A stretch of DNA of 24,654 nucleotides from the UHGV virus genome UHGV-1451352; one strand, given 5' to 3'. Each line of letters opens with the position of its first letter. The stretch's first letter is position 1. Source of the DNA: a virus. Position numbers and translations under genes: made by a program. Shown piece by piece: positions 22,446 through 24,654 of this stretch. A model generated the notes under the pieces. The model saw only the letters and a program-made list of their open reading frames with translations, had not been told where the DNA came from and ran no database searches.

Positions 22446-22919
22446 TCACTTAAGACACTGCTCTTTGATGTAGTCCTGCATGCCGCGAATCATTTTGTCA
22501 GCGGTTGCGATTCCGTCCCGGTGATCGAAATAATTCCGTCGAGCGTCTGGAGTAAGTTCGGGGGCTCCTGCATCATCCACGCCGGTGGAGGAGGTGGCTT
22601 TTGGCACTCCAGGGCAGGTTGCGGCGATGCGCAGCCGTTTAGCGCCAGAATCGACATCACGACGCAAATCGTTAATGGTCTTTTTCGCATCGGACAATTC
22701 CTTCGTGTATTTGGCATCCAGTGCAGCGACATCACGCTGGCGGGTCTGCATGTCTTTAATGGTGGCGGTCGCCAGGAGGAGTTTCTCAGTGGCCTTATCG
22801 CGCTGGTCTCTGTAAGTGATGGCGTTGTCGCGGTAGTGGTTCACGAAGAAAGCCAGTGCGCCGATTAACGCCAGCACCAGCAACTGCAGCCAGTAACGCT
22901 TAACCAGTGCGCTAATCAT
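22446..22919 (-). CDS. rz: i-spanin Rz (P22 gp15-like), 157 aa
   Basis: N-terminal transmembrane segment then a charged coiled-coil periplasmic domain. Follows lysozyme with a 4-nt overlap. Carries an embedded Rz1 frame. Confidence 0.85.
22490..22690 (-). CDS. rz1: o-spanin Rz1 embedded in the +1 frame of Rz (66 aa lipoprotein)
   Basis: ORF 22490..22735. From the internal ATG: [20 protein letters not shown]... with a lipobox Cys and the PPPPPAW proline run, as in lambda Rz1. Confidence 0.75.
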
Positions 22920-23365
22920 GACAGGAACAGAGCTCGCTCTGCCTTGCGGCGATTCGTGAGCCCCGGCATCACCTTTCCGCCTGATTTATTCCAGCGCAGA
23001 AATTCATCTGCCGCGCCTTTTATATCGCCAGCATTCAGCTTTTTCAGCAGTGTAGATGTGGAAAGAGCACGCGACCCAACGTTGTAAGCGAACGACACCA
23101 GTGCGTCGAACTGGCCTTGTGTCAGCTTCACCCTGACAACTTTCAGCACGTCATTCTCATAACCAACAAGCCCTGTTTTCAGAAGCCTGTCAGCGGTTTG
23201 CTGGTCGATAGTCATACCGCGCTTTACTGGCTTTCCGTCAACCGGATGGGTCCAGCCATAGCCGATGGTCCACGGCGCATCTCCCGTTCCGGGGTCTGGG
23301 TAAGCAGTCAGCCGACAACCTTCAAATTTTTTTATCAGAGCAATTCCGTCAGGACTGGTTTGCAT
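22916..23365 (-). CDS. Endolysin, T4-type lysozyme (P22 gp19-like), ~149 aa
   Basis: ORF 22916..23437. C-terminus ...[11 protein letters not shown] matches P22 gp19 as I recall it. The ATG at 23365 has a GGGAG ribosome-binding site and overlaps the holin 3' end. Confidence 0.88.
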
Positions 23366-23672
23366 CGTCAACTCCCGCCTTTTTTGCTGCAAGTTTTTTA
23401 ATAAGATTGCCGATCGAATCGGTGCCGATGTATCCAATAAAGACGCTGGCTATGTAGGCGAGGTTGCTGCTCAGGCCGATAAAGTCCAGAAGGTCACGAA
23501 CGAACCAGGCAATCATCGCGCACATCAGCGCATCAATTAGCGTTTTTGTTACCGCGCCGCCGTTATAGCGACCACGCAGATACGCCATGATAAAAGCCAG
23601 CATTGCACCAATACCCTGCTCCTTGGCGGCAAGTAGCGCAGCGATGAAATCTTGTTTGTATGGCATTTTCAT
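23349..23672 (-). CDS. Holin with lambda-S-like dual start (P22 gp13-like), 107 aa
   Basis: ORF 23349..23750. From [39 protein letters not shown]... it matches P22 holin as I recall it. Met-Lys-Met dual start at 23672/23666, preceded by GGAGGTGA. Confidence 0.88.
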
Positions 23673-23780
23673 AGGCCTCACCTCCGATTTTTCGGATGGC
23701 GCTGTGTGTGTATGAAAAGGATCAGGCTTCACTGGCTGGATTTTCAACAAAGCACGTAGTGATTGATTCCCGTGAGCCTG

Positions 23781-23805
23781 AAATAAAAAACCCGCTCAAG
23801 GCGGG
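23781..23805 (-). terminator. Intrinsic terminator between the tRNA pair and the holin (tR'-like position)
   Basis: On the - strand RNA: CCCGC-CUUGA-GCGGG hairpin followed by UUUUUUAUUU. Confidence 0.65.
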
Positions 23806-23861
23806 AATGTTAGGGTGTGGCAATGTCAGCTCTGCGGCTGAAGATACCCTGGCTGGGTTTT

Positions 23862-23937
23862 TGGTGCCGGTTAACGGATTTGAACCGCTACCTATTCACT
23901 TACAAGGCGACCGCTCTACCATTGGAGCTAAACCAGC
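23862..23937 (-). tRNA. Predicted tRNA-Thr (anticodon TGT), 76 nt
   Basis: Cloverleaf folded by hand: acceptor GCTGGTT/AACCGGC (one G-U), D-arm GCTC-CAATGGTA-GAGC, anticodon arm GTCGC-CTTGTAA-GTGAA (4 of 5 pairs), variable TAGGT, T-arm AGCGG-TTCAAAT-CCGTT, discriminator A, encoded CCA. Confidence 0.65.
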
Positions 23938-23942
23938 ATGTT

Positions 23943-24017
23943 TGGCGGGACAGCGTGGACTCGAACCACGATAAGAAGGTTAACAGCCTTCCGTAATGAC
24001 CTTTATACGACTGACCC
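23943..24017 (-). tRNA. Predicted tRNA-Asn (anticodon GTT), 75 nt
   Basis: Cloverleaf folded by hand: acceptor GGGTCAG/CTGTCCC (one T-T mismatch), 3-bp D-stem, anticodon arm GAAGG-CTGTTAA-CCTTC (perfect), T-arm CGTGG-TTCGAGT-CCACG, discriminator G, encoded CCA. Five nt from the tRNA-Thr. Confidence 0.6.
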
Positions 24018-24080
24018 AAATAAAAAAAGCCACCGTTGCAACTTAAGAGTCACTAACGGCAGCTTACCCTCTAATTATGG

Positions 24081-24599
24081 CTAAATGGCTAATTGCATGT
24101 CAAGGCTTTTAACAGCAACATGCTTAACTTTCTCAACACGTTTACGCATTTTGAAAGCATTTTGCATTGGCTGGTATAAAACAAATAATGACGCTTTCAG
24201 GATGTCGTCAATTTCGTTTCTACAGGTTGCCAGTGAAGGTTTTCTCCATCCCTCGCCACCACGTCCACACATCTTGCGTGGCTTTGCAGTCGCGTGATAG
24301 TAGGATGCAATTGCTCGCTTAGATGAACCATGAGCGTAGTAGCTGAGGAGGATGCCAAAGGCTTTCTTGTCAATGTACATGACGGAATCGACGACCTGAG
24401 AAATCAACATTCCATCATCATCATTACACATTGGCCTTGTCATAATTCTTCCCGGCTCTACGCTCTCCATGAACTTCGCTATTACGCTGCTCATGCGCTT
24501 TTCCAGACGACCTGAATAAACCCATGCGCCCCACAGTTCAAGCCAGCCATTCAGCCACTCGTGCTGCTCTTTGGTGAGGTTTAGTTCTCTTATGCCCAC
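24081..24599 (-). CDS. Late-gene antiterminator Q (QuuD/phage-82-type Q family), 172 aa from a GTG start
   Basis: LELWGAWV and RPMCNDDDGML motifs are typical of this Q family as I recall it. Start codon at 24599 is GTG with a GGAG-containing ribosome-binding site. The frame stays open upstream to the window edge (24654), so the true start could lie outside the window. Confidence 0.75.
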   Translation of the reverse strand: MGIRELNLTKEQHEWLNGWLELWGAWVYSGRLEKRMSSVIAKFMESVEPGRIMTRPMCNDDDGMLISQVVDSVMYIDKKAFGILLSYYAHGSSKRAIASYYHATAKPRKMCGRGGEGWRKPSLATCRNEIDDILKASLFVLYQPMQNAFKMRKRVEKVKHVAVKSLDMQLAI

Positions 24600-24654
24600 G
24601 CGCCTTCTCCCTGTACCTGAATCAATGTGAGGTTTCCGCAGAACACTGCGCCGG

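Follow-up and report, generated by a model that had tools for sequence, protein, structure and literature searches.

Organisation of the Q-to-holin interval

The window analysed here, a stretch of 24,654 nucleotides from the virus genome UHGV-1451352, carries on its minus strand a gene for a Q antiterminator of the phage 21 type, a predicted late promoter at the end of that gene, a terminator, two tRNA genes, a second terminator and the gene of a lambda-S-type holin, in that order (Table 1). The first-pass annotation had placed two tRNA genes (Asn-GTT and Thr-TGT, with encoded CCA ends) between Q and the holin, in the interval that holds the late promoter and its leader, and both the identity and the position of these genes were borne out. 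The Q protein is 85% identical to phage 21 Q and is matched by the Q21 chains 6JNX and 6P18 of the PDB at E 2e-92, while the holin has a dual start, Met1-Lys2-Met3 (MKM), beginning at the ATG at 23672. A locus 100% identical to that of the window was found in E. coli NZ_LR536431.1, and 369 of 5426 complete E. coli genomes carry the tRNA cassette. The tRNA pair is already known at this position, being annotated in phages 21, Sf6, BTP1 and Kapi1 and in many prophages, and its presence in P22-like phages was discussed in print in 2004, 2008 and 2020. P22 itself is without tRNA genes (PMC8022706), in line with the first-pass annotation.

Table 1. Features between the Q gene and the holin gene, in order of predicted late transcription
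Feature	Position	Strand	Evidence and details
Q antiterminator gene, phage 21 type, 172 aa	24081-24599	-	ORF; Pfam PF06530 (Phage_antitermQ), 89.8 bits
Late promoter PR' (predicted)	24074-24103	-	TTGACA (24103-24098), 18-nt spacer, CATAAT (24079-24074); 11/12 consensus
Putative Q-binding element (QBE)	24079-24094	-	Direct repeats AATTAGCC / ATTTAGCC in promoter spacer
Predicted late transcript start and sigma-dependent pause element (SDPE)	24060-24067	-	Start G 24067, SDPE TAAGCTG 24066-24060; alignment to annotated phage 21 start site and SDPE
Terminator tR'	24018-24065	-	17-bp bulged hairpin (24065-24027) and U7AUUU tract (24026-24018); ends at the first base of tRNA-Asn
tRNA-Asn, anticodon GTT	23943-24017	-	ARAGORN and Rfam RF00005; G73 discriminator, encoded CCA
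tRNA-Thr, anticodon TGT	23862-23937	-	ARAGORN and Rfam RF00005; G1-C72, C2-G71, A73, encoded CCA
Small conserved hairpin in spacer after tRNA-Thr	23818-23848	-	-11.3 kcal/mol, z -3.2
Second intrinsic terminator t2	23781-23805	-	CCCGC-CTTGA-GCGGG then TTTTTTATTT; 5 G-C pairs and T6ATTT; -8.4 kcal/mol
Non-coding leader of lambda-S-type holin	23673-23790	-	Conserved; hairpin over Shine-Dalgarno sequence (fold)
Holin gene, 107 aa, first late protein gene	23349-23672	-	Pfam PF05106 (Phage_holin_3_1), 103.5 bits

Both tRNA cloverleafs are maintained by selection

ARAGORN called these two tRNAs and no other in the window, the Rfam tRNA model RF00005 matched them with 55.3 and 55.4 bits (E ~7e-11; gathering score 29), about 26 bits over its threshold, and NCBI PGAP annotates both at the identical locus in NZ_LR536431.1. 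The two genes are separated by 5 nt. Both anticodon loops consist of seven bases with U33 and a purine at position 37; their sequences, CUGUUAA (Asn) and CUUGUAA (Thr), are those of K-12 asnT and thrU, and the remainder of each tRNA has diverged. The elements named by the established identity rules for the cognate synthetases are present in the sequence, namely GUU and G73 in tRNA-Asn, and G1-C72, C2-G71, G35 and U36 in tRNA-Thr.

Irregular pairs occur in both molecules. The U4.U69 acceptor mismatch of tRNA-Asn is kept in 18 of 20 variants and its non-Watson-Crick 13:22 pair in 20 of 20, while tRNA-Thr has a G.A pair at 27:43. Covariation was evaluated with about 20 variants per tRNA gene. For tRNA-Asn, whose variants were gathered with a pattern fixing parts of the D and anticodon arms, 90.5% of cells were paired against 34-53% in slid controls, compensatory double changes were present in 11 of 21 pairs, and the observed score was reached by none of 500 shuffles. 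For tRNA-Thr, 94.7% of cells were paired (23-47% in slid controls), double changes were present in 4 of 21 pairs, and again no shuffle out of 500 reached the covariation score. Both cloverleafs are maintained by selection, and the mismatches of tRNA-Asn are conserved features rather than decay. The acceptor mismatch and the weak D-stem pair pointed out in the first-pass annotation are thus real, but the degeneracy read from them is not borne out by a gene with this many compensatory changes, which phages 21, Sf6, BTP1 and L share at 100% identity. The tRNA-Thr of the window is a minority allele (4 of 130 loci) with five differences from the Sf6/21 allele, all of which preserve structure.

A phage-21-type promoter and terminator precede the tRNA genes

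The predicted PR' overlaps the last codons and the stop codon of Q; the Sf6 annotation places PR' at this very site, and the -35 and -10 hexamers of phage 21 align with it. A position within the 63 nt after Q, as proposed before, does not agree with a -35 hexamer inside Q, and those 63 nt are taken up by the -10 hexamer, the start site, the pause element and tR'. Within the promoter spacer, two direct repeats occupy the position of the phage 21 QBE and constitute a putative QBE; the equivalent repeat of phage L has been proposed as that phage's QBE (PMC8022706). A phage-21-type Q cassette is made up of a gene for a Q21-family protein, a promoter whose spacer holds two tandem 8-bp subsites for Q and which a -10-like pause element follows, and an intrinsic terminator a short way beyond the pause site; judged by its sequence the window contains such a cassette.

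The fold of tR' is strong (-20.2 kcal/mol, z -4.6; as good a fold in 0 of 200 shuffles) and tR' is invariant in phage 21, Sf6, BTP1, L and CUS-3. Phage 21 (PMID 1704887), Sf6, L and Nil2 each have a homologue that their annotation names as the late terminator. On alignment, it is this hairpin and U-tract upstream of the tRNAs that is the homologue of phage 21 tR'. Given that tR' lies between PR' and tRNA-Asn, the tRNAs come after tR' and would be part of the late transcript that depends on Q, outside the constitutively terminated leader in which they had been placed. Neither the terminator at 24065-24018 nor the overlap of promoter and Q had been noticed in the first-pass annotation.

The same Q-PR'-tR' arrangement occurs without tRNAs in CUS-3, where homology stops exactly at the T-tract of tR'. 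Among 130 loci with this tRNA-Asn, about 85 have a 21-type tR' adjoining it and about 16 a lambda-type tR', and in the Klebsiella-type array a strong terminator lies 93 nt upstream of the tRNAs. The terminated leader of about 47 nt was also considered as a trans-acting small RNA like StxS and set aside, almost all of it being within the hairpin.

The second terminator belongs to the holin leader

That a terminator exists at 23781-23805, as first proposed, is supported by the retention of its structure and T-tract, despite different stem sequence, in Mulock, Kp ST101phi6.1, Louie and mEp237. By contrast, its designation as tR' was not sustained: the terminator that precedes it is stronger (-20.2 versus -8.4 kcal/mol), and t2 is linked to the holin leader rather than to Q and PR', being present in Louie and mEp237 without tRNAs. 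In 84 of 118 related arrays, those of Sf6, 21 and BTP1 among them, no canonical terminator follows the last tRNA within 250 nt, as counted with a strict rule-based finder that was used only downstream of arrays and misses bulged 21-type and lambda-type tR' hairpins; t2 therefore cannot be a general Q target. A permissive energy-based finder gave many matches in coding sequence, and its summary was discarded. In terms of sequence, t2 is the 5' edge of a holin-leader module and travels with the holin leader, also where a phage has another Q gene and lacks tRNAs.

Conservation of the holin leader exceeds 90% in Louie and mEp237 and is about 70-75% in Klebsiella phages. The stem of the small hairpin after tRNA-Thr is kept with altered bases in the Klebsiella phages Mulock and ST101-KPC2phi6.1. 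When the spacer between tRNA-Thr and t2 was searched for a relic tRNA or another RNA family, Rfam returned no match at E<=1 besides the two tRNAs.

Codon usage of the prophage genes

When 22 ORFs of the window were compared with 33 K-12 genes, ACA amounted to 16.3 per 1000 codons in the prophage versus 5.2 in the host genes (odds ratio 3.2, p 1e-14), and Asn codons to 51 versus 38 per 1000 (odds ratio 1.38, p 6e-6). Enrichment of ACA was seen in most late genes, across the late operon, and in the coat gene AAC accounts for 22 of 24 Asn codons. The anticodons had earlier been linked to the AT-rich acquired genes of this window; the over-representation of their codons in prophage genes was confirmed, but it is not specific to AT-rich morons. 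Because AGG, AGA, ATA and TCA are enriched more than ACA, and AAC/AAU are not rare codons, codon supplementation by the tRNAs is plausible but not specific. The codon-supply argument for Asn in the coat gene has already been made for phage L (PMC8022706), and the literature searched contained no experiment on late protein synthesis or on a burst-size gain from this tRNA cassette.

A probable tRNA insert in the late transcript

The anatomy of the interval, its homology to known phages, the selection on tRNA structure and the codon bias together make it likely that the window is a P22-like (Lederbergvirus) E. coli prophage in which a standard phage-21-type late regulatory cassette is followed, directly downstream of tR', by a two-gene tRNA insert. 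The main yield is a corrected map, with the promoter overlapping Q, a presumed Q-controlled terminator before the tRNAs, and a downstream terminator that is part of the lysis-gene module.

Synthesis of the tRNAs would then depend on Q. RNA polymerase would initiate at the near-consensus PR' overlapping the end of Q, pause at the SDPE and, without Q, terminate about 45-50 nt further on at the tR' hairpin and U-tract. Once made, Q would bind the repeats of the promoter spacer and be loaded onto the polymerase during its pause, forming a nozzle at the RNA exit channel, after which terminator hairpins would be ignored and transcription would read through tR', tRNA-Asn, tRNA-Thr, the weaker t2, the holin gene and the rest of the late operon. 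The Q21 mechanism has been described (Yin et al. 2019, bioRxiv 10.1101/651190), Q-dependent read-through was shown for phage 21 (PMID 1704887, cited in the phage 21 annotation), and the same arrangement and reasoning have been published for phage L (PMC8022706). As to the processing route, host tRNA-processing enzymes would excise the tRNAs from the 5' end of the late transcript, RNase P acting at the U-rich leader (the tail of tR') and 3' trimming proceeding to the encoded CCA. Any benefit to translation would come from a raised capacity for decoding ACA and AAC/AAU while the ACA-rich and Asn-rich late genes are translated. Leakage through tR', stopped at t2, may give low tRNA expression in lysogens.

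Constitutive expression was the model of the first-pass annotation: were the tRNAs inside a PR' leader ending at t2, the lysogen would make them at all times, and the only effect of Q would be to carry transcription on into the lysis genes. A near-consensus PR' that needs no activator and a real, conserved t2 agree with this model, and if tR' leaks, the read-through transcripts would contain the tRNAs and end at t2. The two tRNA genes of BTP1 also appear among the highly expressed loci in lysogen RNA-seq, in which late genes have a TPM of 10-20 (PMC7067206); this signal fits tRNA stability and also fits Q-independent expression. However, we regard the model as unlikely, given that the much stronger terminator, homologous to phage 21 tR', lies between the start site and tRNA-Asn, that most related arrays have no canonical terminator shortly after the last tRNA, and that t2 is found in tRNA-free phages as well. 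Transcription of the tRNAs from a Q-independent promoter of their own, outside the PR' transcript, appears very unlikely. For Stx phages, the tRNAs have been reported to be driven from a start site located after tR' and ahead of the tRNA genes (PMC7547250), and this possibility was left open in the phage L paper (PMC8022706). In the window, by contrast, tRNA-Asn begins right after the T-tract of tR', which leaves no space for an additional start site, and a promoter scan revealed PR' only, with no promoter-like site between tR' and tRNA-Asn; the 93-nt gap in Klebsiella phage Mulock likewise yielded no promoter. In addition, dRNA-seq commonly gives rise to artefactual start sites at the 5' ends of mature tRNAs.

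Another question is what the tRNAs are for. Their main benefit could be anti-defence rather than codon matching, with the phage genes refilling tRNA-Thr and tRNA-Asn destroyed by anticodon nucleases of the host or of prophages. Colicin E5-type nucleases cleave tRNA-Asn, and the first member of the array is always Asn while the others vary (Thr, Phe, Arg, Gly), as expected of arms-race cargo. In Salmonella, the Gifsy-1 nuclease HepS cuts tRNA-Thr(GGU, UGU, CGU), tRNA-Ile and tRNA-Ser (PMC13043305). Yet HepS is triggered by siphovirus tail-tip proteins and not by P22-like phages, the anticodon loops of the phage tRNAs are those of host thrU and asnT, with the consequence that the phage tRNAs would probably be cut too, and the enrichment of ACA offers a simpler reason; we consider this explanation quite unlikely. 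The notion that at least one of the tRNAs is a non-functional relic in decay could draw on the irregular pairs described above and on the second slot of the array, which has decayed in phage L/ST64T and JLK-2012 to the point of giving no ARAGORN call. It is scarcely credible for the window, in view of irregular pairs that are conserved across diverged homologues next to pairs with compensatory change, allele differences in tRNA-Thr that all preserve structure, and scores well over the Rfam threshold.

The window is a minority recombinant in which the tRNA pair is bracketed by the strong tR' ahead of it and t2 behind it. There is a small chance that leakage from the very strong constitutive PR' produces a short tRNA-only transcript in uninduced lysogens, with the lysis genes untouched, and that the prophage in this way gives its host extra tRNA-Thr(UGU) and tRNA-Asn. 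If this were true, the capacity of the host for translation would be changed by a form of lysogenic conversion, or the host would be buffered against anticodon nucleases that attack tRNA-Thr or tRNA-Asn, HepS being an example. How and when the tRNAs come to be expressed, and whether the phage gains by them, is a question raised explicitly by the phage L authors; a lysogen of the window's prophage would be a handy test case for it, with the second terminator separating tRNA read-through from lysis-gene read-through.

Comparison with known systems

One of the nearest relatives is the late regulatory region of phage 21 (OL657228; PMID 1704887; Yin et al. 2019), in which promoter, QBE, start site, SDPE and terminator were annotated from experiments. 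The DNA of the two is 97.6% identical over the stretch that runs from the transcript start through tRNA-Thr, with the same part order and identical SDPE (TAAGCTG), tR' hairpin and tRNA-Asn. By contrast, the Q of the window exceeds that of phage 21 by 10 residues and diverges from it beyond about residue 94, its promoter overlaps Q whereas that of phage 21 follows Q, the spacer repeats are AATTAGCC/ATTTAGCC as opposed to ATTGAGCA/AATGAGCA in phage 21, and the -10 hexamer is CATAAT rather than AACACT. The lysis cassettes are unrelated, with a lambda-S-type holin in the window and a pinholin in phage 21.

The window's Q variant, PR', qut region, tR', tRNA-Asn and tRNA-Thr are all found at 97-98% identity in the interval between genes 59 and 60 of Shigella phage Sf6 (AF547987, Casjens et al. 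2004) and in Salmonella phage BTP1. All these parts are annotated in Sf6, and there, as in phage 21, tR' is placed before the tRNAs. Homology ends at the 3' end of tRNA-Thr; past this point Sf6 and BTP1 have a lambda-type S leader without a canonical terminator, whereas the window has a different leader with t2, in addition to a different tRNA-Thr allele. Salmonella phage L / ST64T shares the Q type and the idea of a QBE-like repeat, and the tRNA-Asn of L starts 46 bp after the putative late start (PMC8022706). In its second slot, phage L has an annotated tRNA-Leu(TAA) with an anticodon arm shorter by 4 nt, for which ARAGORN gives no call, while the tRNA-Thr of the window is intact. The tRNA array is found behind three unrelated Q families, and lambda has unrelated filler where Sf6 has tRNAs.

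The lambda leader is 194 nt long, and the tRNAs of Stx phages decode rare codons for Ile and Arg. The PR'-6S RNA-tR' region of lambda and its counterpart in Stx phages follow the same logic as the cassette proposed here, with a constitutive promoter, a short terminated leader and Q-dependent read-through, and in Stx phages tRNA genes are likewise positioned after tR' and before late or toxin genes (PMC7547250). The window differs from them in its Q family and in a leader of about 47 nt, as against 258 nt in Stx phages (PMC7547250).

Late promoter, pause element and tR' ahead of the tRNA genes

The 63 nucleotides between the antiterminator gene Q and tRNA-Asn are fully occupied, as they accommodate the −10 hexamer, the start site, a pause element and a strong terminator. 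A promoter scan recovered the late promoter PR' (TTGACA, 18 nt, CATAAT) with an 11/12 consensus match, its −35 hexamer lying within Q and its −10 hexamer just past the Q stop codon, and alignment of this −10 with that of phage 21 places the transcript start at G 24067. The following 51 nucleotides (24068-24018) fold into a bulged 17-bp hairpin with a U7AUUU tail (−20.2 kcal/mol, z −4.6; 0/200 shuffles fold as well), with the U-tract running up to the first base of tRNA-Asn. The first-pass annotation listed the tRNAs, Q, the holin and a terminator, all of which are present, and its tRNA call and its boundary for Q were right. However, it put PR' after Q and tR', the terminator on which Q acts, after the tRNAs; this placement is wrong, because the −35 hexamer is inside Q and the strong terminator precedes tRNA-Asn.

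Features of the Q-to-lysis region of the window
Feature	Coordinates	Strand	Basis
Q ORF	24081-24599	minus	Pfam Phage_antitermQ; solved Q21 structures at E 2e-92
PR'	24103-24074	minus	promoter scan
Spacer direct repeats	24079-24094	minus	position of phage 21 QBE
tR'	24065-24018	minus	folding
tRNA-Asn(gtt)	23943-24017	minus	ARAGORN; Rfam tRNA covariance model
tRNA-Thr(tgt)	23862-23937	minus	ARAGORN; Rfam tRNA covariance model
Spacer hairpin	23818-23848	minus	GGUA..UCAGC-CGCAGA-GCUGA..UGCC; −11.3 kcal/mol, z −3.2
t2 (second terminator)	23805-23781	minus	stem of five G-C pairs, then TTTTTTATTT; −8.4 kcal/mol
Holin leader	23673-23790	minus	non-coding, ~110 nt
Holin	starts 23672	minus	Pfam Phage_holin_3_1
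Rz-like gene	22446-22919	minus	
81-aa ORF	22490-22735	minus	other frame within Rz-like gene

The sigma-dependent pause element (SDPE) TAAGCTG, the entire hairpin and tRNA-Asn are invariant in an alignment of the window with Sf6, BTP1, L and 21. Q is 85% identical to Q21, the differences falling mostly after about residue 94 (residues ~94-172, 24081-24320), and direct repeats, AATTAGCC/ATTTAGCC, occupy the promoter spacer at the position of the phage 21 Q-binding element (QBE). Variant repeats together with a divergent C-terminal part of Q suggest that DNA specificity has changed; the same point about the repeat has been made for phage L, where the variant repeat was proposed as QBE and the first tRNA begins 46 bp past the putative late start (PMC8022706). 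Q21 has been reported to load at QBE and SDPE and to form a nozzle at the RNA exit channel, blocking terminator hairpins (Yin et al., bioRxiv 10.1101/651190).

Two tRNA genes with conserved structure

ARAGORN called two tRNA genes and no others across the 24.6-kb window, and with the Rfam covariance model they reach 55.3 and 55.4 bits (gathering score 29), confirming the pair proposed from the sequence; no other RNA family was found at E<=1 in 23300-24654. Both genes encode CCA and are separated by a 5-nt gap. Among 20 tRNA-Asn variants, 90.5% of cells were paired compared with 34-53% when partners were slid, both-sided changes occurred at 11 of 21 pairs and no shuffle reached the observed score, although variation in two arms is under-sampled here because the set was gathered by a pattern fixing parts of them. 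The suspicion that tRNA-Asn is degenerate did not hold: the U4.U69 mismatch is present in 18/20 variants and the non-standard 13:22 pair in all 20, indicating that they are family traits rather than decay. For tRNA-Thr (19 variants), 94.7% of cells were paired against 23-47% in slid controls, with double changes at 4 pairs. Five differences set the window gene apart from the common allele; they fall in loops or replace G-C by G-U and U-A by U-G. Asn identity depends on G73 with GUU and Thr identity on G1-C72, C2-G71, G35 and U36; the window genes carry all of these elements.

The tRNA pair at this place is a feature already known. Asn(GTT) and Thr(TGT) tRNA genes were recorded in P22-like prophages in 2008 (PMC2629481) and discussed in 2020 (PMC8022706), and the pair is annotated in Sf6, 21, BTP1, Kapi1, JLK-2012 and others. 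Of 5426 complete E. coli genomes, 369 contain the 156-nt pair, and PGAP annotates the two genes as tRNA-Thr and tRNA-Asn in almost all of 30 listed matches.

The second terminator belongs to the holin leader

The terminator that had been called tR'-like (t2) is genuine, with five G-C pairs and a T-tract, but it is part of a holin-leader module rather than tR'. Klebsiella phages match the window at 70-75% from 23858 to the holin, whose proposed start was upheld, and the E. coli phages Louie, mEp237 and HK225 match at 91-94% from about 23796 onward. In the alignment, the stem bases differ phage by phage (CCCGC/GCGGG in the window, GCCCG/CGGGC in Mulock, GCCCGC/GCGGGC in Kp ST101-KPC2phi6.1, GCCGC/GCGGC in Louie and GCCCCG/CGGGGC in mEp237) while the T-tract and the next ~110-nt leader are conserved. 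That the structure is kept also in Louie and mEp237, whose Q-to-holin interval has no tRNAs, assigns t2 to the leader. Of 118 related arrays, 84, among them those of Sf6, 21 and BTP1, gave no canonical terminator within 250 nt past the last tRNA with a rule-based finder, and a separate terminator scan of Sf6 gave the same outcome.

Among the matches listed, 4 of 130 loci carrying the window-type tRNA-Asn combine a t2-type leader with the tRNA-Thr allele of the window. This allele, 5 positions off the common Sf6/21 allele, is always accompanied by the window-type leader (other loci L005, L051 and L127) and the tRNA-Asn upstream of it is the Sf6 sequence, which suggests a mosaic junction at or inside tRNA-Thr. 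tRNA genes may thus act as recombination joints.

Between tRNA-Thr and t2, the inner stem of the spacer hairpin is kept with other bases in the Klebsiella phages Mulock and ST101-KPC2phi6.1; this hairpin could be a processing site. The holin leader itself is >90% conserved in Louie, mEp237 and HK225 (~70-75% in Klebsiella phages) and ends in a hairpin, UCCGA-AAAA-UCGGA, over the Shine-Dalgarno sequence just ahead of a Met-Lys-Met dual start, an arrangement similar to lambda S sdi. With its lipoprotein-type signal (…LALNGCAS…) and proline-rich tail, the 81-aa ORF is what would be expected of an embedded Rz1 o-spanin.

Expression and possible roles of the tRNAs

Stx phages have been reported to start a transcript between tR' and their tRNAs (PMC7547250). 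In the window, no DNA separates tR' from tRNA-Asn and a scan found no promoter between them, so that co-transcription of the tRNAs with the late operon, dependent on Q, is rated most likely from the sequence. Some leak through tR' that ends at t2 may contribute as a minor mode. A study of BTP1 lysogens that listed loci with TPM>100 set the pair of tRNA genes apart from them, gave late genes at TPM 10-20 and had the late operon begin right after the tRNAs (PMC7067206). tRNA stability and processing would explain this pattern; leak or independent transcription would also be compatible with it.

Codon supply had been tentatively linked to AT-rich acquired genes. In 22 ORFs of the window (7114 codons), ACA stands at 16.3 per 1000 codons versus 5.2 in 33 K-12 genes (13440 codons; odds ratio 3.2, p 1e-14; 29% versus 10% of Thr codons), and Asn codons stand at 51 versus 38 per 1000 (p 6e-6). 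AAC makes up 22 of 24 Asn codons in the coat gene, whose Asn codon use was likewise remarked on for phage L (PMC8022706). Enrichment of ACA and Asn codons therefore stands, but ACA is enriched across most late genes and not just the AT-rich tailspike, and AGG, AGA, ATA and TCA are enriched more. Codon supplementation is compatible with these data and is not singled out by them. An anti-defence role is conceivable, as tRNA-Thr species are substrates of the Gifsy-1 nuclease HepS (PMC13043305). However, the anticodon loops are exactly those of K-12 asnT and thrU, the remainder of both tRNAs having diverged, which argues against phage tRNAs resisting cleavage.

A tRNA module placed after tR' in related phages

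The tRNA cassette is a separate module positioned after tR'. A sequence pattern built on the D and anticodon arms of tRNA-Asn matched at least 120 stretches in IMG/VR. Among the matches listed, 97 of the 130 loci have an Asn-Thr array, the others being Asn-Gly, Asn-Phe-Thr-Arg etc.; a 21-type tR' adjoins tRNA-Asn in ~85 and a lambda-type tR' in ~16, with the same TTTTTTATTT junction, and in about a dozen loci of Klebsiella type a strong terminator lies 93 nt before tRNA-Asn. Three unrelated Q families precede the arrays, PF06530 (window), PF03589 (Kapi1) and PF06323 (a Klebsiella phage), and the first terminator precedes the tRNAs in every context examined.

The array is expandable, to Asn-Phe-Thr-Arg(TCT) in Klebsiella phages (L007 1501-1820, L013 1103-1422), to Asn-Thr-Gly(TCC) in JLK-2012-like phages (L009 1249-1482) and to seven tRNAs in one IMG/VR contig. 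In some lineages its second slot seems to have decayed or changed, with tRNA-Asn always kept. ARAGORN made no call for the annotated tRNA-Leu(TAA) of phage L/ST64T (L002 1413-1484) or the annotated tRNA-Thr of JLK-2012 (L009 1329-1404); the phage L second-slot sequence keeps the acceptor, D and T arms of tRNA-Thr with an altered anticodon arm 4 nt shorter. In one IMG/VR contig (L131), a chimeric tRNA-Thr 80-155 nt downstream of the tRNA-Asn start matches phage tRNA-Thr in its first 25 nt, equals E. coli K-12 thrU in its last 51 nt and is followed by a glyT-like tRNA-Gly, which points to recombination of the phage array with the host thrU-tyrU-glyT-thrT operon.

Sf6, BTP1, vB_SosS_Oslo, SPN9CC and many other phages are 97-98% identical to the window over the interval bounded by the ends of Q and tRNA-Thr, and phage 21 is 97.6% identical from the transcript start onward; homology of Sf6, 21 and BTP1 to the window ends at the tRNA-Thr 3' end. 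The Sf6 record gives the order PR', qut site, tR', tRNA-Asn, tRNA-Thr and labels tR' a putative late mRNA leader terminator, likened to the phage 21 late terminator. The phage 21 record, with literature references, marks the −35, QBE (ATTGAGCA/AATGAGCA), −10, start site, SDPE and terminator, and the same two tRNAs come after the terminator. By contrast, CUS-3 has Q, PR' and tR' as in the window without the tRNAs, its similarity to the window stopping in the tR' T-tract, and where Sf6 has its tRNAs, the DNA from tR' to the S leader is unrelated filler in both lambda and CUS-3.
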